This document shows, piece by piece, positions 34,942-47,186 of a DNA stretch of 64,000 nt (position 1 is its first letter; each line of letters begins with the position of its first letter). The position numbers were made by a program, and so were the translations under genes. The notes beneath the pieces are model-generated. The model saw nothing but the letters and a program-made list of their open reading frames with translations, did no database searches and had not been told where the DNA came from. The stretch is from a virus. Location: the IMG/VR virus record IMGVR_UViG_3300043584_000003, positions 35,163-99,162 of that record; one strand, given 5' to 3'.

Positions 34942-35926
34942 CGGCCGCCTCCGCTACCGACGCGATGGTCTGGATGCCGAGCACGCGACGCAGATAAGCA
35001 TCCGGTTCGTGATGACGGAAGCGAGCCCAGTACTGCGGATGCGGTGCGTAATGACTGATGTCGACGCCGACGCGGCGCAGCGTCTTACGCGCCTCGACGC
35101 CGAGCGCGACGACCCGAGGCTTGCCGAGCTTATTCCAGCAGGCGTGCACGTCGTCGACGTCGTTCGCGCTGACGACACCGATCTGCGACAGCAGCGTGCC
35201 GTGCGTCGCGACGCGCAGCGGTTCGCGCGTCAACGCAGAGAATAGGTAGTGTCCGGACGTACCGGGGAACGGCGCGAACGCGGGCCAGCTGCCGTATCTG
35301 ATCGGCTCGCCGGAGACACCGCGTCGATCACCGACCAGCAGTACGCTCGGCCAGCGTGGACCGATGTACGTGACGTAGTCGTTAAGCGCAGAGACGCGTT
35401 CGTGTTGTACGTGAGCGGTCTCGATGATGTCGTCAACATCGTCATTGGTTGGATCATTGTCGTCGAGCACGATAAGCGGCAGCAACGTTGACGCCATCGC
35501 GTGTTCAAACGCGCGTGTAACGTCGGGGATTCGATCGATCTCATCATACAGATCGTCTCGATGACGACCGCATGCGTCGAGATATTCGTTCGTTCGCCGG
35601 ACATGTACGAGCAACGCGCCGCGCGATAGCAAAAACAGTTCGAGCCACGCGTTAATGGCGGCATCGAGCTGCGTCGCTCGTCCGAGAACAAATGGATAAA
35701 CGGCCTCACCTACGTGCCAGCGATCACAGATGACGTTATGATCGTTGCCGGCTCGATAGTTGAGCAGCGGTTCCGCATATTCATCGAGTGGATGCGCGGT
35801 TGGCGGACCCCTGTGATAAACATCTAACGATGACAACGAGGCTCGCTGTCGGTTCAGCGCGAGCGCAAGTCGTTGTGCGAGCTGCGTTTTTCCAGTGCAG
35901 TCGCTACCGTCGAGCAAAATTAGCAA
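34934..35926 (-). CDS. dNMP kinase fused to a uracil-DNA glycosylase-superfamily domain
   Basis: LLDGSDCTGKT P-loop, CDRWHVGE; C-terminal VLLVGD, GTSGHYL, VVALG, HPQY; TTG start behind GGAG. Confidence 0.7.
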   Translation of the reverse strand: MLILLDGSDCTGKTQLAQRLALALNRQRASLSSLDVYHRGPPTAHPLDEYAEPLLNYRAGNDHNVICDRWHVGEAVYPFVLGRATQLDAAINAWLELFLLSRGALLVHVRRTNEYLDACGRHRDDLYDEIDRIPDVTRAFEHAMASTLLPLIVLDDNDPTNDDVDDIIETAHVQHERVSALNDYVTYIGPRWPSVLLVGDRRGVSGEPIRYGSWPAFAPFPGTSGHYLFSALTREPLRVATHGTLLSQIGVVSANDVDDVHACWNKLGKPRVVALGVEARKTLRRVGVDISHYAPHPQYWARFRHHEPDAYLRRVLGIQTIASVAEAADA

Positions 35927-39505: not shown

Positions 39506-39768
39506 GACTTGTTTCTCTCCAGCTGATCGGCCTCGTGCTTCTGGATGACCTCGAGCGCGCGGTCACGCATCGACATGCCGACGATATCGAGCGTCACATC
39601 GTTCTCGCTTCCGAGGATCTGTCGAACATCGCGCAACGCGAGCTGCGCGGCCCGCGCGTCTTGCTTGGCGCGCGGCAGCTCATCGGCACGTGAGGAGTAA
39701 CGCAACAGCGTGACGACCATGCCGATTAAGACGACACCGATGATAACTACCGTGATAACGATCTCCAT
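39502..39768 (-). CDS. Membrane-anchored coiled-coil protein
   Basis: N-terminal TM; GGAGG-like RBS. Confidence 0.6.
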   Translation of the reverse strand: MEIVITVVIIGVVLIGMVVTLLRYSSRADELPRAKQDARAAQLALRDVRQILGSENDVTLDIVGMSMRDRALEVIQKHEADQLERNKS

Positions 39769-39873
39769 CTGACCTGCCTCCTAATCTTCGATCGGTCGTT
39801 CCGTCTCTGCAATCGTAGCGACCGACGTCACCATTATAGTGACGCCGGCCGCCTGTTTCCCGATACAGAAACG

Positions 39874-39958
39874 CAGAGATGACAGGATTTGAACCTGCGG
39901 AGGTGTTACCCTCTTTCGTTTTCGAAACGAACGCCTTAGGCCGCTCGGCCACATCTCT
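39874..39958 (-). tRNA. tRNA-Ser(CGA)
   Basis: AGAGATG TG GCC..GGC G TTCGT TT CGA AA ACGAA, long variable arm, GCAGG TTCAAAT CCTGT CATCTCT G; no encoded CCA. Confidence 0.92.
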
Positions 39959-39963
39959 TAACA

Positions 39964-40006
39964 GGAACGAGTACGCCGAGGGTGTCTGAACCAGCGTACT
40001 CGTTCC
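39964..40006. terminator. 13-bp hairpin between two tRNAs
   Basis: GGAACGAGTACGC...GCGTACTCGTTCC. Confidence 0.45.
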
Positions 40007-40023
40007 CGGTCCCGCCCGGGACG

Positions 40024-40097
40024 CGCGCTTCCATGGATTCGAACCACGAACCTTCCGCTCCGTAGGCGGACGCTCTATCCGATTGAGCTAGAAGCGC
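40024..40097 (-). tRNA. tRNA-Arg(ACG)
   Basis: GCGCTTC TA GCTC AATCGGATA GAGC G TCCGC CT ACG GA GCGGA AGGTT CGTGG TTCGAAT CCATG GAAGCGC G. Confidence 0.93.
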
Positions 40098-40101
40098 AGG
40101 T

Positions 40102-40138
40102 GGGACGGCCGGACAAGGGCGTCGAGGCCGGCCGTCCC
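40102..40138. terminator. 11-bp hairpin right after the TROVE stop codon
   Basis: GGGACGGCCGG...CCGGCCGTCCC. Confidence 0.45.
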
Positions 40139-40142
40139 GGTC

Positions 40143-41819
40143 TTAGATCTCTCCTCGCGAGAAGCTGCTGATAAGCTGCGGCACCGAGGCGTCGAACCCA
40201 GTGACGTCCAACATACCGCTATCCGTCGGATCAGCGATCGTGAAGTCGGTCGCCGTCATGCCGACCACAACCAGACGCGCCGGGATGCCCATCTTTTCGC
40301 GGTAACGGCGCAACGCCTGGTGCGGATGCACGTTACCGGCCCAGGTCTCGTTGTCCGTGTAGATCACGAACGTATCGATCTTGATGTTGTTTTTGAGCGC
40401 GTACAACATCGGCTGTGCGCAGTCCGTGCCGCCCATCGGCAGCTCGTGACACGCGCGAACGGCGTCGTCGAGCCGCTGCCGTGGACTGATCGCGAGCGGA
40501 CGGCACGCGCTGTTCGAATGCCAATCCTCGCTGCCCCAACGCATATTGATACGGTTACCGTCCTTGGTCGTGAACCCGACGATCTCGTAATCCTTCTCGA
40601 CGCTGGCGGTCGTCAAGGCGAGCGCGGCGGCCGCCTCGCGACAGGACAGATTCGAATCGGCGATCGTCACGTTCATCGAACCCGAGATGTCTAGCGCCAG
40701 CATCACGCGCTTGCCGGTCGGCTCGATCGCCTCGAACGCCGCGTAGAACGCCGTGTCGAGCGCGTCGACGATCCGACGCGTCGGCTGCCACGTCGAGTTA
40801 CCTCGGAACGAGTACCCGGACGCGTACGTCTTCAACGCGAACAACACCGAGATCGGGTGAATTCGACCGCGCTTGAGTAGCTCAGGATTGGTCAGCTGAT
40901 GCACGACCTCGTTGGTCCAGCCGCCGGTGTTCGGCAGCAGTCCGATGCGCGTCAAGCGCGGCAGCTGACGAAGCAACGCGGTCTGCGGCACGCCGTTCTC
41001 GAGCATCGCCTCCCAGACGGCGGGTACGTTCATAGCCGCGTCCGGCAGCGCCTCCCAGGGCAGTCGGTAGTCGGCGATCAGCTTGGCGTACTCGTTCTTC
41101 GACGCGCGCTGGATGCGCTCGAAGCCCTCGATGATCCGCAGCGGATCCTCGGGCAGCAAAACCGTAAGACCGAGTACGTCGGCAGCACGCTTGCGACCGC
41201 AGATCCAATCAAACAACTCACGACGCACCAGGTCGTTCTTTTCTGGCTTCGGATGCGCCATGCGCAACACGTCACGATCCGACCAGCCGACGCGCGTGCG
41301 GTACTTGACGGCCTGATACGCGAGCTTCTCGATCGGCTGGTTCAGGTACCAATCGGACACGCCACGGCGGAGCACCGGACCCCAGCCGCGAAACTGCTCG
41401 ACGTACTGAACGAACGTCTTGAGCGTCGAACCGGTGCGCGCGACCAGCGGCACGGCCTCGGCCGCCGCGCGACGACCCTCGAGGTTACCGAAGCTGATGA
41501 CCGCCGCGAGCACGAACAGTCCCGGCTGCTGGCGCGGCGCGAGTCCCGCCTGGGAGACCTCGACGACGCGACGGCAGACCTGCAGGCCGTCCAGCGCGAT
41601 CAGGTCGCGCAGCGCCGCCAGGTTGTCCAGCGCCAGGTCGCGCGGCTTGACGTAGTACGACCCGCCGTCGACGCCGAGCAGCAGAAACCGGTCAAGCCGC
41701 GTCCACGGCGTCACGCGGAACGTAAAACCGCCCGCGTTGTTCGGAACCTGCCGAGGACTAGCCGCACGTGATTGCGGCGTCGTACGCGTGGACAGCTCGG
41801 TCAGCGGATCGCGTGCCAT
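40143..41819 (-). CDS. rsr: TROVE domain Ro60/Rsr ribonucleoprotein
   Basis: NNAGGFTF...LDRFLLLG..GSYY, KYRTRVGWSDRDVLRMAHPKP, GRIHP, LALDISGSM (vWA MIDAS), GGTDC, YTDNET, GFD. Confidence 0.95.
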   Translation of the reverse strand: MARDPLTELSTRTTPQSRAASPRQVPNNAGGFTFRVTPWTRLDRFLLLGVDGGSYYVKPRDLALDNLAALRDLIALDGLQVCRRVVEVSQAGLAPRQQPGLFVLAAVISFGNLEGRRAAAEAVPLVARTGSTLKTFVQYVEQFRGWGPVLRRGVSDWYLNQPIEKLAYQAVKYRTRVGWSDRDVLRMAHPKPEKNDLVRRELFDWICGRKRAADVLGLTVLLPEDPLRIIEGFERIQRASKNEYAKLIADYRLPWEALPDAAMNVPAVWEAMLENGVPQTALLRQLPRLTRIGLLPNTGGWTNEVVHQLTNPELLKRGRIHPISVLFALKTYASGYSFRGNSTWQPTRRIVDALDTAFYAAFEAIEPTGKRVMLALDISGSMNVTIADSNLSCREAAAALALTTASVEKDYEIVGFTTKDGNRINMRWGSEDWHSNSACRPLAISPRQRLDDAVRACHELPMGGTDCAQPMLYALKNNIKIDTFVIYTDNETWAGNVHPHQALRRYREKMGIPARLVVVGMTATDFTIADPTDSGMLDVTGFDASVPQLISSFSRGEI

Positions 41820-41862
41820 GATAACCTCGTTCCTCGGTCGATCGGTCGATCGGTTGTATTAC

Positions 41863-41970
41863 CTACGGACGATACGCATCACCGCATCGTGTTCCAACCG
41901 CGATAATGACGAAAAACGTCACAAGCAGCCAGAGCCGTGGATCATACAGCATAGTCTTGATCGTCGTCAT
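41863..41970 (-). CDS. Small membrane peptide, 35 aa (not in ORF track)
   Basis: MTTIKTMLYDPRLWLLVTFFVIIAVGTRCGDAYRP. Confidence 0.3.
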   Translation of the reverse strand: MTTIKTMLYDPRLWLLVTFFVIIAVGTRCGDAYRP

Positions 41971-41979
41971 GGTTCGTAC

Positions 41980-42028
41980 CGTACGCGGCGGACGTATAGC
42001 GAACTAGACCATACGTCCGCCTCGTACG
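41980..42028. other. Long hairpin
   Basis: GGCGGACGTAT/ATACGTCCGCC stem with outer CGTACG pairs. Confidence 0.5.
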
Positions 42029-42044
42029 CGATGAGCGTATGTTT

Positions 42045-42087
42045 ATCGACCGGATAACTTTGCTGGGTAACCGATCGACCTCGGCCC
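42045..42087 (-). ncRNA. Short Y-RNA-like hairpin 1
   Basis: GGCCGA..GTCGATCGGTTACC...GTTATCCGGTCGAT; shares its helix with three neighbouring elements. Confidence 0.45.
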
Positions 42088-42153
42088 ATCTTACCTCCGT
42101 TAGAAATCCCACACCCAACGCCGATTGTTAGCGAGTTCCGGTAGGAGGCCTCG

Positions 42154-42226
42154 TTGCGGGAACCGGACTCGAACCGGTGACCTCAGGGTTATGAGCCCTG
42201 CACGCTACCAACTGCGCTACCCCGCG
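42154..42226 (-). tRNA. Initiator tRNA-fMet(CAT)
   Basis: CGCGGGG 5' end with C1:A72 mismatch, GGG:CCC anticodon stem, CT CAT AA loop, TTCGAGT T loop. Confidence 0.93.
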
Positions 42227-42240
42227 ATGCGCGATAGAAG

Positions 42241-42381
42241 AAGGACCACGGCGTGGTGTTCACATCCGATATGTTCCGGTCGTAACCGGAACGTTCAACC
42301 TCGACGATGTTCACTATGCCGAAGTCGACGGGAATCGCACCCGCTATCACTGGTAACCGAACGTGTTCGGCCGTGGTCCTT
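42241..42381 (-). ncRNA. Y-RNA-like structured RNA 2
   Basis: Closed by 11-bp AAGGACCACGG/CCGTGGTCCTT; shared CACGTTCGGTTA/ATATCGGATGTG helix; T-arm-like CGGG TGCGATT CCCG; GTTCCGGT-TACG-ACCGGAAC hairpin. Confidence 0.55.
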
Positions 42382-42411
42382 CGATCGTCTGGGCCGCGAG
42401 CGTATTAAGTG

Positions 42412-42461
42412 CTCACCGGTGTTAGTCACTAAGAAGGTGGTTAACCGACGAACGGTCGGCC
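42412..42461 (-). ncRNA. Short Y-RNA-like hairpin 3
   Basis: GGCCGA..TTCGTCGGTTAACC...ACACCGGTGAG. Confidence 0.4.
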
Positions 42462-42570
42462 CGCGACGGACGACCACGAGAGGGGGCGGGTTCGATAACC
42501 AGGGTGGCCCGTCAAGCGTCCCAAGCGGATTCAACACCCGTTGCCTCCAAAGAAACGTAAGCGTATGAGC

Positions 42571-42679
42571 GTCACCGGGTTTACGCGCTCTGCCGATTGA
42601 GCTACCGCCCAGCGTTGAGCGGGAGGGACTCGAACCCCCAACCTCGCCATCCGAATTGGTTAACCGACGACATCCGGCC
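42571..42679 (-). ncRNA. YrlA-like permuted tRNA RNA 4
   Basis: - strand: GTCGTCGGTTAACC, T arm GGGGG TTCGAGT CCCTC, acceptor CCGCTCA-ACGC-TGGGCGG, TA, D arm GCTC AATCGGCA GAGC, then GTAAACCCGGTGAC closing the helix. Confidence 0.75.
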
Positions 42680-43222
42680 TACGTTACTCGTTCCTACCGC
42701 TGTGTACTTGTCAAACTGCATCCGTGCTGAAACTGAACTGAAACTGAACGCCGTCAGTCTAACGACCGGTGACACCGTTACCGTGTTCGTTATTCTGGCC
42801 CGTTAGCATTAGCCCGCGTGACAGCGAAGCACGTGGTAGCAGCCACAAAGAGACACCGCAAGGGACAGGCAAACATGCAGCATTCGAATTATCTCCGATC
42901 TTTGCGGCGCGTGTTGCGCCGATCCGCGTGCTGATACAGCAAGCGTAGCAACGCGCCGGTTAGCGCGTCACCGATCTTAAAGCCGCTGAACGCGACGAGC
43001 ACGGCCGTACCGGTACCCGCTGCGATCCGTCTTGCTGTTCGCACGGGCATAGTCTAGACCCGGACGAATCGACGCTTACCGGACGGCAGCAGCACGAGCG
43101 TGACGTCCGGCTGCGTCGCTTGCATCTGCCGACGTTCCTCGGTAGTTGCCTTCCGACGGTGACGCTTGCCTGACTGATTGGCTGTTGATCGATACTTACC
43201 GGTCGTCTTGGGATCACGATGC

Positions 43223-43951
43223 TTACGCTTGGATGGTATCTGGAACATCGCGCAGTAGATTCCTTACGTGAGTTGGATCAACGGGAATACCTGGACCCAT
43301 GGTGGTCGTGAACGTCACCTTACGAAGATAGCGGCCCTTTGCGGCGGACGGCTTGGCTCGGATCACCTCGTCGAGTACGGCGGCGTAGTTCTCGACCAGC
43401 GCGGTGACGTCGAACGACGTTCGACCGATCACGACGTGCAGATTGGCCTGTCGGTCGGTTCGAAACGTAATCTTACCGTGCTTGACGGCGGCAACCGCCG
43501 AGCCGACGTCCGGCGTGATCGTGCCCATGCGCGGGCTCGGCATGAGCCCACGCGGACCAAGCACGCGCGCTAGCGGCGTGACCTTGTTCATCTGATCGGG
43601 AGTTGTGATCACGACGTCAAAGTCGAGCCAACCCGACCGAATACGTGCGACTAGGTCATCGGTGCCGACCTCGTTCGCACCGGCGGCGATCGCGTGATCC
43701 GCTTGATCACCGACGGCAAACACGATCACGCGAACGACTCGGCCGGTGCCGTGGGGCAGATCGACCGTGCCGCGTACGACCTGGTCGTGCTTGGTTGGAT
43801 CAACGCCGAGCCGAAAAGCCACCTCGACCGACGCGTCGAAACGCGTGTGACTGGTCTGCTGCGCGAGCCGTGCGGCCTCGTACGGCGTGTACAGCCGCGT
43901 GCGATCGACCAACGCGGCGACCCGCTGGTAGTTCCTGCCGTGCTTCGTCAT
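43223..43951 (-). CDS. rplA: 50S ribosomal protein uL1 (full length, actinobacterial type)
   Basis: [73 protein letters not shown]. Confidence 0.95.
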
Positions 43952-43997
43952 CGTTAATTCCTCTTATAGCAACGTTTCTGCGCCTTATTAATCATTA

Positions 43998-44600
43998 TTA
44001 GGAAACTGCGCGATCGAGATACGCCTCTTTGAGCTCGTCGTCGAACCGCGCACCGGACGCCAACGCGAGCGCCGACGGTTTCGTGATGAACGCGACCGGC
44101 CTCTGACCGGTGTGCTTTCGCGTCGTCAACGCCTCGACGACCTCGAACGGCGACGCGATCAGATTGTGTCGAATGTACGGAACCTCACCGGGAATCGACG
44201 ACATGCCGGCCTTATAGACGACGTATCGGCCGAGCTTATCGTCCCGTAACGCACGATCGTACATGGCCGCGAGATCGGTCTCTGGCGGTACGTCCGCCGG
44301 ATCGACGTCCAGCTCGCGCATGATCCGAATCTCGAACCAGCGGCAGGCATTGCATCGCTTACCCTGCTCGACGTACGGCCCCGTGTGATCCCAGTGATTG
44401 TCGGTCCAGCTGGACCCGTAGCCGATGAACCGCGCGATGGTGCGGTAGTACTCCAGCTCGAGCTCGTCGGTCGATTCATCGTAGGCGGTCGCGTCGCCTC
44501 GTTGCGTCGGCACGGATACGTCGGTTCGGATCGGCAGCGGAAGAAACCAGCGGCGCACCTGACCGATGTCGCGGTAGTTCGGTAGCTGAAGAGAGATCAT
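43998..44600 (-). CDS. Hypothetical protein (RCNACRWFE)
   Basis: AGGA RBS; 200 aa with phage-like codon use. Confidence 0.6.
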   Translation of the reverse strand: MISLQLPNYRDIGQVRRWFLPLPIRTDVSVPTQRGDATAYDESTDELELEYYRTIARFIGYGSSWTDNHWDHTGPYVEQGKRCNACRWFEIRIMRELDVDPADVPPETDLAAMYDRALRDDKLGRYVVYKAGMSSIPGEVPYIRHNLIASPFEVVEALTTRKHTGQRPVAFITKPSALALASGARFDDELKEAYLDRAVS

Positions 44601-44839
44601 CTCATATTTCCTAACGTCAGTCGGTCAGCGCGCGTCCAGCGTAGACGATGCGCGACCGATCGAGACGTACGCGACGTGACCCGCTGCGTATGCGGACGTC
44701 GCTCGGTCCTCCCCCAGACCGAAAATGTTCATATGGCATCCATTATCGCGTATCCTCGTTCCGTCGTCGGTCCAGTCGACCAGTCTACCGACCGGTGACA
44801 CGATGCTAATGATCTTACACATCATCGGTCGCGGCTCGA

Positions 44840-45193
44840 TCACGTCGACCGTTGCGCGAGGTCGTCGCTGGTTGAAGGCGGTGTTGACGGCGGCGGCTGC
44901 CAGCGCTCGATCAGCTCATGGGCGGGTAGCTGTCCGGTGAATCGCTGACAGTCACAACGAACGTACTCGTAGCCGTTGCGAGATCCATTAATGTCATAGT
45001 GCACACGCTTAACGTACGCGGCGCAGTAGCCATCGTCTTTCTTGTGTAGCGCGTAATCGTGCTCGCAACCGCAGATGGTCGGCGGAACCAGCGGCACGGG
45101 GCGACCGCGTCGGCCGAGCTGAAACGTCAACACGTGCGACGCGACGTAGGCGGCAACGCCAACGCCGATCATCATCGACTCGTACCAGTTCAC
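44840..45193 (-). CDS. Membrane-anchored protein with small Cys/His cluster
   Basis: N-terminal TM; CGCEH...C...CDC. Confidence 0.55.
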   Translation of the reverse strand: MNWYESMMIGVGVAAYVASHVLTFQLGRRGRPVPLVPPTICGCEHDYALHKKDDGYCAAYVKRVHYDINGSRNGYEYVRCDCQRFTGQLPAHELIERWQPPPSTPPSTSDDLAQRST

Positions 45194-45223
45194 GGTAGCC
45201 TGACTTCCATCAGTTACTTCCCA

Positions 45224-45658
45224 CTAATCGTTACTCGGTTGCGTTCGATCCAAGTATGCGGCGTAATCCTCGTTCTCAGGCGCGTTAACGTCGACGGCGT
45301 CGATGACCTCGGTGATCGGTTCATCGTTCGTGCCCGGCAGCGCTCGTGGTTCGATCCATTGTGCGTTGTTGACGTCGAACACGCCGCCGTTGATGTGCTC
45401 ACCGGTTATAGAATCGTGCGTGTCGTGATAGAGCGCGATGGCGCTCAACGCTCGATTACGTACCTCAACGATCGACTGCGCGATGACCTGCAGCTCACCG
45501 ACCAGCTCGGCGACGCGATCCTGCAACGACTCGACCTGGACGGACATGCGATCAACGCGGCGGCTCTGTAACCTCATATGTCGATAGACGAGCGCGGCGA
45601 ACCTCGTCAACGCGCGGTTGCGGCGACGCTCGCTCTTGGTCTGCGGTTCGGTATCCAT
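45224..45658 (-). CDS. Coiled-coil hypothetical protein
   Basis: Heptad-like central segment. Confidence 0.5.
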   Translation of the reverse strand: MDTEPQTKSERRRNRALTRFAALVYRHMRLQSRRVDRMSVQVESLQDRVAELVGELQVIAQSIVEVRNRALSAIALYHDTHDSITGEHINGGVFDVNNAQWIEPRALPGTNDEPITEVIDAVDVNAPENEDYAAYLDRTQPSND

Positions 45659-45669
45659 GACTTGATCTC

Positions 45670-46086
45670 TTATGCGGTATCGGCGTCCTGCCGGATCATC
45701 ACCCAGAACTCGTCAAAGCTCTCCCATCGCTTTCGCATCTGAAGCCAGTCACGCAGCATCTCCTGCTTGAGGATACGGCTCGCGATGTCGTTGCGTACGA
45801 CCTCCTCGCTGGGCTCGTACACGTAGCCGCTCGGTCCGCGAATGGCCTGAAACGCGCGAACGTTATCGATGTTGCCATCACGCTTGATGTAGCTGATCTT
45901 CACCGAGCGAATGAGCTGGTGAGCCTGCTCACGGCGGTACCGTTCGGCTGCCTCGGCGTCGTCCCACGTGAACCGCTGGTGTAACGGATGATCGGTCCCA
46001 CGCGCCTCGTCGAGAACGATCTGAGGTGTTAACTCACCACCGTGTCGTTGCCGGATCTCCATAAGAACGTCTCGTAGCTCTGCCAT
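45670..46086 (-). CDS. Helical accessory protein downstream of the GGY-NN array
   Basis: Likely start ATG 46086 behind GAGGAAAG; ELTPQIVLDEAR...HPLHQRFTWDDAEAAERYRREQAHQLIRSV. Confidence 0.7.
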   Translation of the reverse strand: MAELRDVLMEIRQRHGGELTPQIVLDEARGTDHPLHQRFTWDDAEAAERYRREQAHQLIRSVKISYIKRDGNIDNVRAFQAIRGPSGYVYEPSEEVVRNDIASRILKQEMLRDWLQMRKRWESFDEFWVMIRQDADTA

Positions 46087-46106
46087 CGTTATCTCTCTTT
46101 CCTCGT

Positions 46107-47186
<1,080 letters not shown>

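Follow-up and report, generated by a model that had tools for sequence, protein, structure and literature searches.

A full-length ribosomal protein uL1 gene standing alone in the genome of a soil actinophage

Results

The DNA analysed here (the window) is a stretch of 64,000 nucleotides, positions 35,163 to 99,162 of the IMG/VR virus record IMGVR_UViG_3300043584_000003; all coordinates below are window positions. The source record is 100.9 kb long, is rated complete by CheckV, and carries viral hallmark genes (tape measure, DNA polymerase, helicase, and primase). Among its phage replication genes, with phage genes on both sides, lies a minus-strand open reading frame of 242 codons (43223..43951) that runs from an ATG at 43951 to a TAA ending at 43223. 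Its product is a homologue of RplA, ribosomal protein uL1: the Pfam family Ribosomal_L1 (PF00687, cut-off 32.2 bits) matches with 193.3 bits (E 4.5e-57) over profile positions 3–198 of 198, the M. tuberculosis protein matches residues 1–232 (E 1e-97), actinobacterial uL1 proteins are 66–70% identical, and the AlphaFold model described below agrees with the assignment. Neither uL11 (rplK) nor bL12 or bS21 was found anywhere in the 100.9-kb genome. The preliminary description of this DNA, which had noted a complete 242-residue uL1 among phage genes with no rplK, rplJ, or rplL neighbours, is thus confirmed in its central observation.

The gene is preceded by a Shine-Dalgarno-like sequence read on the minus strand at 43958..43965, AAGAGGAA, whose GAGGA core stops 7 nt short of the ATG and makes a strong ribosome-binding site. 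It lies in a 46-nt AT-rich spacer (43952..43997, minus strand, ∼35% GC), the position taken in cellular rplA by the L1-binding leader, which the phage spacer lacks. Beyond the spacer, at 43998..44600 on the minus strand, a conserved phage gene of 200 aa forms the upstream border of the insertion; it has no Pfam or PHROG match, its protein-atlas matches are viral hypothetical proteins only, and its homologue in the related phage G001 (45% identical) directly adjoins that phage's Y-RNA array and Ro60 gene.

Downstream, also on the minus strand, come ∼510 nt (42713..43222) holding two small doubtful open reading frames (85 aa and 53 aa). This segment is missing from the G001 spacer and shows no similarity to G001, to cellular rplA-downstream DNA, or to rplJ or its leader; it appears to have been gained together with uL1. 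The remainder of the variable zone is an RNA-rich minus-strand tract. A YrlA-type Y-RNA-like element with a tRNA-like domain (42558..42667) scores 36 bits (E 2e-5) against Rfam RF02553, below the family's 69-bit cut-off, with T-arm and D-arm sequences readable in it; it lies 556 nt downstream of the uL1 gene on the same strand, much as the preliminary description had placed it. Further Y-RNA-like repeats sharing the helix motif TCGGTTAACC (42240..42557) resemble four tandem repeats of the G001 spacer, and both ARAGORN and Rfam (64 bits) call a tRNA-Met (CAT) at 42153..42226. On its downstream side the zone is bounded by a Ro60/Rsr homologue with TROVE and vWA domains at 40143..41819 (PF25045, 216 bits; PF05731, 123 bits; phrog_850), which is 56% identical to the Ro60 homologue of G001. 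A soil metatranscriptome contains a 232-nt contig identical to positions 42371–42602; this was the one metatranscriptome examined and it covers the Y-RNA zone only, while no RNA sequencing run matching the uL1 gene was listed.

Misassembly or contamination with host DNA was considered as a source of the gene. The majority of "phage" database matches to uL1 do look like cellular contamination, and IMG/VR contains host/phage junctions of just this kind, contig L005 being an example. Nevertheless, an independent assembler produced a single 7.8-kb Logan contig that covers 39700–46102, including both uL1 junctions, with zero differences and flat depth, and two other, unrelated soil studies yielded exact fragments of uL1 and both flanks at similarly low depth. 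The uL1 region has no GC break, its gene is complete where the L005 copy is truncated, and among billions of proteins searched no cellular uL1 exceeds 70% identity to it. Contig integrity, which the preliminary description had asked to see verified, is therefore established by the agreement of an independent assembly with independent samples; a chimera with host DNA is excluded, and we give the contamination explanation practically no credence. The gene is a genuine phage-borne one, with viral genes on both sides.

Consistent with the expectation that uL1 would not be common to related phages, the gene is missing from the complete relatives G001 and G003. G001 is a complete, terminal-repeat-bounded phage in which 54 of 122 open reading frames are collinear with the source phage; since these complete relatives do without it, uL1 must be dispensable for this phage type. 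Near-identical DNA was not found in the GenBank phage collection, and a peptide-pattern scan of viral contigs, with either uL1 or the 200-aa gene as query, returned no close relative; the same kind of scan of metagenomes with uL1 gave 80 matches, all cellular in type. An alignment-based scan of viral contigs yielded a PhiMa05-like jumbo contig and L005, and nothing else. We considered L005 as a second solo uL1 and rejected it: it carries a truncated uL1 fragment beside phage packaging genes with a GC break between, the mark of a junction or chimera. Two top-scoring hits of a large protein search, P0002 and P0003, were likewise discarded as relatives, being internally duplicated fragments of cellular rplA with L10/L12 neighbours. 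A phage-type relative of this uL1 was thus not found anywhere we searched, and by sequence the gene appears to be lineage-specific. Only one phage lineage besides the source phage is known to encode uL1, that of the jumbo cyanophage PhiMa05, the published precedent (ISME J 2026, PMC13157829).

An AlphaFold2 model built from a 46-sequence alignment reached pLDDT 83 and pTM 0.72 (a 16-sequence alignment gave pLDDT 49). Foldseek matched it to 7msc_8 (TM 0.82/0.85), 2hw8_A (0.81/0.85), and 4qg3_A (0.80/0.85), which are ribosome-bound, mRNA-bound, and 23S-bound L1, and the model thus predicts that the two-domain L1 fold, with domain II inserted in domain I, is kept. As the preliminary description had it, the TTMGPG RNA-contact motif is intact: T217, M218, and G219 are all retained, the three positions that are mutated in TthL1–23S RNA complexes deposited in the PDB. 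Also present are F38 and E43, which by analogy with TthL1 we take to be domain-I RNA-recognition residues. Domain I alone is enough for specific binding of rRNA and mRNA (PMC2175363).

In Actinobacteria the L1-binding site precedes rplA only (PMC3616713). We found a leader of the form GUGG-NAG-helix-ACCAC 9–58 nt before rplA in 77 of 80 actinobacterial loci, with compensatory pairs, which fits the published description (PMC3616713). Because no Rfam model detects this actinobacterial leader, we built our own covariance model (R1), which scored 23–47 bits on held-out cellular loci. Searched with R1, the whole phage contained no leader (best match 13.4 bits, E 0.78), and an Rfam search of the region upstream of uL1 returned nothing. 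To judge from its sequence, the phage uL1 gene has lost both the autoregulatory leader and the rplK partner.

The phage-like codon use attributed to the gene was borne out: GC3 is 0.733 for uL1 and averages 0.70 in the phage, whereas 80 actinobacterial rplA genes have a median of 0.933. The protein has moved in the same direction: K/(K+R) is 0.26, compared with a cellular median of 0.58 and 0.18 for the phage proteome, and net charge is unchanged despite this massive replacement of lysine by arginine. The terminal branch of phage uL1 measures 1.01 against a median of 0.077 for cellular branches (∼13 times longer). The gene is of actinobacterial origin; we attempted to assign a single donor order, and the tree left Micromonosporales, the Pseudonocardiales/Mycobacteriales clade, and Streptomyces all unrejected. 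Phage-like composition and a long branch together indicate that uL1 has long been resident in the phage.

Across 80 uL1 proteins of the source phylum there are 71 invariant columns, of which phage uL1 keeps 61; the ten that changed (K6R, R53T, K71R, D93N, G125T, N139S, K141R, T142M, V145I, and K177R) compare with a cellular maximum of three. Thirty of its residues are never found among the 80 cellular proteins. The divergence at usually conserved sites named in the preliminary description is among these changes, MPSPR standing for MPNPK through N139S and K141R, and PTKHDQ for PRKADQ through R53T and A55H; the first two lie, with T142M, in a conserved domain-II loop, and the last two in the 50–57 loop. 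The share of highly conserved columns changed was 24.6% for domain II versus 11.9%, which is not significant (Fisher p 0.098), so an excess of changes in domain II is suggestive only. Changes at invariant sites could also mean altered or lost affinity for rRNA rather than a tuned stalk.

One could envision such a gene as a functionless passenger, taken from a host and slowly decaying, since it is a singleton missing from complete relatives, its branch is very long, and no RNA run was listed for it. The manner of its divergence speaks against this. The proportion of changed columns rises smoothly from 14% of invariant ones to 78% of the most variable, a graded pattern that argues for purifying selection; the reading frame is intact, full length, and served by a strong Shine-Dalgarno sequence; the protein retains the TMG motif, a confidently predicted two-domain fold, and 61 of the 71 invariant residues; and charge was preserved throughout the lysine-to-arginine replacement. 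The composition, moreover, is fully converted to that of the phage, which implies long residence, and an unselected 729-nt reading frame would be expected to have broken by then. In two other soil samples the uL1 sequence recovered is identical. We therefore regard simple decay as rather improbable.

The setting of the gene raises a different possibility, namely that phage uL1 acts off the ribosome as an RNA-binding or chaperone partner of the Y-RNA array, the YrlA element, the tRNAs, and Ro60, folding or escorting these RNAs or docking on a tRNA-like elbow. It immediately precedes the array, tRNA-Met, and Ro60, all in one orientation, and no terminator is predicted in the interval; the Y-RNA zone is represented in a soil metatranscriptome, and many of the uL1 changes fall in domain II, away from the core RNA-recognition surface. 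[quoted passage not shown] The surrounding genes do form a module of the kind known from other phages (Chen et al. 2014, PMC4201824; a Thermus phage Ro60, PMC12135203), with Ro60, YrlA-like RNAs, and tRNAs, yet such modules are not known to include uL1 and do not recurrently carry it. In none of 80 viral Ro60 loci did we find uL1 within 8 kb of Ro60, and G001, in which the 200-aa gene, the Y-RNA array, and Ro60 all recur, has uL1 nowhere in its genome, so the module works without it. Model R1 detected no canonical L1-binding site in the Y-RNA zone (41820–43222) or the rest of the phage, and the adjacency may reflect no more than insertion into a variable intergenic zone. Within the stalk, furthermore, it is mainly bases of 23S rRNA, and not the uL1 protein, on which the tRNA elbow stacks. 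The suggestion that uL1 binds the nearby Y-like RNAs thus failed to find support, as did any link between uL1 and the Ro60/Y-RNA module, and we consider such an off-ribosome role unlikely. Still less likely, in our view, is that uL1, the array, the tRNA-like YrlA, and Ro60 constitute one phage-built RNP system aimed at the host ribosome, in which, for example, the altered uL1 might take its place in the L1 stalk and so draw a tRNA-like Y RNA, carrying Ro60 and a nuclease, into the E site, or decay that depends on Ro60 might be directed at marked host rRNA; if true, it would be the first functional link of a ribosomal protein to the Ro60/Y-RNA particle.

Discussion

We propose, with a probability of roughly one in two (∼0.5), that phage uL1 is an unregulated copy that replaces host uL1, represses host rplA, or does both. 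An ancestor of this soil actinophage would have captured uL1 from an actinobacterial host as a stand-alone, domesticated copy, which selection would have maintained until it reached the base and amino-acid composition of the phage. The gene would share expression with the non-structural genes of the replication side and use a strong ribosome-binding site of its own; because its mRNA carries no L1-binding leader, synthesis would escape the feedback that limits cellular uL1. With its domain-I surface kept, the protein would bind helices 76–78 of host 23S rRNA and displace host uL1 from the L1 stalk, and any excess may also bind the conserved leader of host rplA and turn host uL1 synthesis off. 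The result would be ribosomes with a phage protein in the L1 stalk, and the alterations of domain II and the 50–57 loop at cell-invariant positions may affect the handling of deacylated tRNA or of E-site factors.

Host-ribosome remodelling and repression of host rplA, both put forward in the preliminary description, are consistent with the sequence: domain-I residues and fold are intact, the phage leader is lost, and a leader stands before nearly every actinobacterial rplA. The repression target would be rplA rather than the rplK-rplA pair originally suggested, since the actinobacterial site precedes rplA only. A takeover of the L1 stalk is probable because the copy is complete, is constrained, and lacks both its partner gene and its self-regulating RNA switch. 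Expression of phage uL1, its incorporation into ribosomes, the repression of host rplA, and an effect on translation are things we only infer, and compatibility with host 23S rRNA is assumed.

Alternatively, uL1 may have been repurposed to an end unrelated to either the L1 stalk or Ro60, as a decoy or inhibitor of a host factor or of a defence that senses uL1 or the E site, or as a regulator of phage mRNA through a non-canonical site. A very long branch and 30 residues without cellular counterpart, in a protein that has nonetheless kept its fold, might be expected of such a gene, and the missing leader and rplK partner are compatible with a new role. There is, however, no positive evidence for any particular target, and constraint along the protein still follows, site by site, the pattern of ribosomal uL1, with the rRNA-contact TMG motif intact; these features count against a pure protein decoy, which would need neither. 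Of the alternatives to L1-stalk replacement and rplA repression we hold this one the least improbable, while still thinking it doubtful.

The Microcystis jumbo phage PhiMa05/MaAM05 and its Vampirovibrio prophage relatives likewise encode full-length uL1 of bacterial descent in a tailed phage (PMC13157829), and a 279-kb IMG/VR contig (G005/L166) has the same uL11-uL1 pair as PhiMa05. In MaAM05, uL1 sits inside a cell-like captured block, tRNA-Trp-secE-nusG-rplK-rplA, followed by metabolic genes; no secE-nusG-rplKA block of this type is present at our locus, where the neighbours are phage-specific. The PhiMa05 type has a 274-kb genome with five other ribosomal proteins, and the 279-kb contig retains a leader-like match to R1 before rplK (23.6 bits). 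The source phage, by contrast, is a 101-kb actinophage in which uL1 is the sole ribosomal protein found, with neither rplK nor a leader. Its uL1 is ∼45–50% identical to that of PhiMa05 and differs from it in having phage composition and in being far more diverged from its cellular source.

Surveys of virus-encoded ribosomal proteins (Mizuno et al. 2019, PMC6375957; Al-Shayeb et al. 2020, PMC7162821) report bS21, bL12, bL9, bS1, bL31, bL33, bS6, uS9, uS15, uS4, and HPF; neither mentions uL1 as found, and Ribosomal_L1 occurs only in Mizuno's list of searched profiles. The surveyed proteins are also host-derived and fixed in phage, and these authors propose, as we do for uL1, that they take the place of their host counterparts in the host's ribosomes; like the proteins stressed in the surveys, uL1 lies at the periphery and is exposed to solvent. 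In contrast to those, it is larger (242 aa), binds rRNA as a primary binder, and is itself a translational repressor. Compared with cellular actinobacterial rplA (Fu et al. 2013, PMC3616713), the phage gene shares family, length, two-domain fold, TMG motif, and 66–70% identity, and differs in lacking the leader, an upstream rplK, and a downstream rplJ-rplL, as well as in GC3 (0.73 vs 0.93), in K/(K+R) (0.26 vs 0.58), and in its ∼13-fold longer branch.

Phage ribosomal proteins have been thought of as small, loosely bound, and exchangeable, and uL1 does not fit that picture. It is a universal 25-kDa protein, a primary rRNA binder and translational repressor, and the mobile stalk it forms expels tRNA from the E site. 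Being part of a wholesale copy of a bacterial block, the published PhiMa05 uL1 is not easily distinguished from a gene captured recently. The uL1 described here was kept and reshaped by a mid-sized phage, in which it stands alone and recoded, with its switch apparently lost and cell-invariant positions changed. It therefore offers a clean test case for whether a virus can exchange a structural component of the machinery by which tRNA exits the ribosome, and for whether a phage can silence a host ribosomal gene through the host's own autoregulatory logic, and its altered residues amount to a natural mutagenesis of the L1 stalk.

Results

Consistent with the preliminary description, the uL1 gene (43223-43951, minus strand, ATG start) is a complete reading frame of 242 aa; its product covers the whole Pfam Ribosomal_L1 profile (193.3 bits; cut-off 32.2), and residues 1-232 match M. 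tuberculosis and M. smegmatis uL1 of solved ribosomes (E 1e-97). The residue details described earlier (MPSPR for MPNPK, PTKHDQ for PRKADQ, TTMGPG intact) are all correct on alignment. AlphaFold, run on a 46-sequence alignment, gave a confident two-domain model (pLDDT 83), whose closest structural fits are to L1 in its open, RNA-bound form (7msc_8, 2hw8_A and 4qg3_A; TM 0.80-0.85). From the stop of the upstream 200-aa gene (43998-44600) to uL1 runs an AT-rich spacer of 46 nt (43952-43997, minus), which contains the SD-like AAGAGGAA, its GAGGA core 7 nt from the ATG. TTAATA, 17 nt and TATAAG form a sigma-70-like pair in the same spacer; since it ends in G, the pair escaped the promoter scan, and if used it would start the transcript within or after the SD. 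In one 2.5x contig from an independent soil run, the gene has a +1 and a -1 indel separated by 4 nt (43678-43682), so that the reading frame is preserved; they reflect natural variation in two codons or else a read error.

The parent IMG/VR record (100,903 bp), of which the window covers bases 35163-99162, is rated complete by CheckV. A tape-measure gene lies upstream in the window, and DNA polymerase, SNF2-type helicase, exonuclease and primase genes flank uL1 on both sides; the polymerase shares no more than 35% identity with its actinophage homologues, and among cultured phages the genome has no near relative. It is collinear with G001, a complete 93-kb IMG/VR phage with terminal repeats at its ends, with which it has 54 of 122 ORFs in common at a mean amino-acid identity of 55%. 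That uL1 entered this record as an assembly artefact, for instance as a chimera with host DNA, is scarcely credible: in Logan, where the probable source run was assembled independently, one 7.8-kb contig of flat depth spans the gene and its flanks (39700-46102) with 0 differences, and soil metagenomes of two other studies hold exact 151-230-nt pieces, all at similar low depth, of Ro60, the Y-RNA zone, the uL1 interior (43644-43794), the 200-aa gene and beyond. What such a chimera looks like may be seen in another IMG/VR contig, L005 (IMGVR_UViG_3300039159_000466), which we rejected as a phage uL1. Its uL1 fragment (L005:3-644) is cut before TTMGPG, missing the C-terminal 40 residues, and continues into unrelated sequence, beyond which lie genes for the small terminase subunit and for a phosphoesterase; the adjoining phage genes have a GC of 44-51%, down from 58%. 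On sequence grounds we regard L005 as a host-phage junction or assembly chimera filed as virus. Neither such a truncation nor such a GC drop is present at the uL1 locus of the window.

Among 5.8 billion proteins, phage uL1 comes closest to the cellular uL1 of actinomycetes, Pseudonocardiaceae among them (66-70% identity), and the best 80 matches in the metagenome collection have the same identity ceiling. In these 80, GC3 is 0.88-0.99, and none shares more than one of the 30 residues specific to the phage; where the upstream flank is long enough, most have uL11, and the three showing none have a strong L1 leader. Two ENA metagenome proteins that had seemed closer, P0002 and P0003 (contigs L002 and L003; gene calls of 405 and 293 aa), are cellular rplA with internal partial duplications, which inflated their search scores and are likely assembly artefacts of public metagenomes. 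Phage uL1 is a singleton, without a phage-type relative in the protein and metagenome collections searched. A maximum-likelihood tree that included 80 actinobacterial sequences places it within the phylum, with a terminal branch 1.01 substitutions per site long against a median of 0.077; no sister group is singled out, three alternatives passing the AU test.

The codon use, earlier called phage-like, proved to be so: GC3 is 0.733, near the phage mean of 0.70 and not the cellular rplA median of 0.933. Lysine has been replaced wholesale by arginine (K/(K+R) 0.26; cellular range 0.42-0.71; phage proteome 0.18), with net charge unchanged at +7. Among invariant columns, 14% differ in the protein from the cellular consensus, and as the column classes become more variable the share climbs to 23%, 38%, 54% and finally 78%; 10 of 71 invariant positions are changed, against at most 3 in any cellular sequence, and 30 of its residues are absent from all 80 cellular proteins. 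Highly conserved columns are changed more often in domain II (24.6%) than in domain I (11.9%), a difference that is not significant (p 0.098). Taken together, GC3, the K/R ratio, branch length, the graded changes and the structural model point to long residence in phages and fast evolution under the site-by-site constraint of a working uL1. One could also envision a decaying passenger, but this constraint pattern speaks against it and makes it improbable.

The gene is found nowhere in the complete relatives G001 (93 kb) and G003 (71 kb), which speaks against its being common among related phages. In G001, only ~500 nt separate the 200-aa gene homologue from Ro60, and this spacer (L086:834-1331) consists of four tandem Y-RNA-like repeats of ~70-100 nt each, with the common pattern GGGCCGCTCG...TCGGTTAACC...CACTCGCTC. 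Because the helix motif TCGGTTAACC recurs in the Y-RNA-like elements of the uL1 phage (42240-42720), the array is taken to be conserved despite only 55% protein identity, with a different copy structure. The corresponding interval in the uL1 phage, up to Ro60 (40143-41819), is 2,179 nt and holds, 5' to 3' on the minus strand, uL1, ~510 nt that are unassignable, the Y-RNA-like array, which includes a YrlA-type element with a tRNA-like domain (minus), and tRNA-Met. The short, uL1-free spacer of G001 implies that uL1 was inserted with ~0.5 kb of extra DNA; by this comparison, it would be a lineage-specific gain, added on the upstream side of a Y-RNA/Ro60 module that was already in place. Downstream of uL1, an ORF of 53 aa (42889-43050, minus) could encode a small membrane protein, its product being hydrophobic in the middle and rich in arginine at the tail; it has no evident RBS and no homologue was found.

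The proximity of this module had led to the proposal that uL1 binds the nearby Y-like RNAs, and more broadly it might work with Ro60. We consider this distinctly unlikely, as uL1 occurs within 8 kb of Ro60 in none of 80 other viral Ro60 loci, and the neighbouring Y-like RNAs contain no canonical L1 site. A soil metatranscriptome of an unrelated study has one exact contig, of 232 nt, in the Y-RNA-like zone (42371-42602) and no other within 39700-46300, uL1 included; this suggests that the Y-RNA-like RNAs are abundant and stable, DNA carry-over being another possible source. The run search listed no RNA runs containing the uL1 gene.

Cellular uL1 binds an rRNA-like site in its own mRNA and thereby represses its own synthesis (PMC10931766), and in Actinobacteria this site lies directly before rplA (PMC3616713). 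Because Rfam 15 failed to detect the leader in the four actinobacterial rplA loci tested, we extracted it from rplA upstream regions: GUGG-NAG-helix-N(2-6)-ACCAC is present in 77 of 80 loci, 9-58 nt before the start codon; its outer pairs never vary, and its inner helix shows compensatory changes. A covariance model, R1, built on 74 of the leader-bearing loci, scored 23-47 bits at the correct location in loci outside the model, and could serve to annotate the actinobacterial leader. Over all 100.9 kb of the uL1 phage, its best match is 13.4 bits (E 0.78), far from uL1; this match (genome bases L172:2348-2378, minus) has GGGUGG for GGGAGG, lacks the bulged A and is probably due to chance. We therefore conclude that phage uL1 is without a canonical autoregulatory site. 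The reported absence of rplK extends to the whole genome, in which no uL11 gene was found.

Discussion

Virus-encoded ribosomal proteins are a known class, to which phage uL1 belongs. Those reported by Al-Shayeb et al. 2020 are S4, S1, S21 and L7/L12 (PMC7162821); in the portion of Mizuno et al. 2019 considered here, Ribosomal_L1 was searched and is absent from the 14 proteins found (PMC6375957), and PHROGs has no uL1 family. The suggested search of viral databases was carried out, and in the GenBank phage collection most tblastn matches look cellular; Salmonella whole-genome contigs account for two, and short unannotated records for most of the rest. The genuine exception is the Microcystis jumbo phage MaAM05/PhiMa05, for which a 2026 paper reported six ribosomal proteins, uL11 and uL1 included (PMC13157829). 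At the MaAM05 locus (L175, 36606-43238), uL1 belongs to a tRNA-Trp-secE-nusG-rplK-rplA block of bacterial style; the metabolic genes prxU, resA, kdgK and ilvD come next, making up a long cell-like stretch in a phage record. A second PhiMa05-like jumbo contig (IMGVR_UViG_3300001199_000001, 279 kb) has adjacent uL11 and uL1 (L166:942-2097) and a 23.6-bit R1 match just before uL11, so that this captured operon seems, from its sequence, to have kept its regulatory RNA. In contrast, uL1 of the window phage is a lone gene, recoded to match phage composition and deprived of its regulation. It represents a second, well-supported lineage of phage-encoded uL1.

Domain I of L1 alone is enough for specific binding to 23S rRNA and the mRNA site, and domain II adds rRNA affinity (PMC2175363). 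Because phage uL1 retains domain I and the TMG contact residues, has lost feedback, and would meet a near-universal rplA leader in the infected phylum, we propose, with a probability of about one half, that it is unregulated, occupies the host L1 stalk and represses host rplA when in excess. Under such circumstances, phage uL1 would be synthesized without restraint during infection and would enter the L1 stalk of host ribosomes, while the excess would repress host rplA, leaving ribosomes that bear a phage-type stalk. Changes in the 134-145 loop (domain II) and the 50-57 loop may tune the handling of tRNA or E-site factors. Some other moonlighting role, or one as a decoy, is unlikely. For experiments on the L1 stalk, phage uL1 offers a good point of entry.
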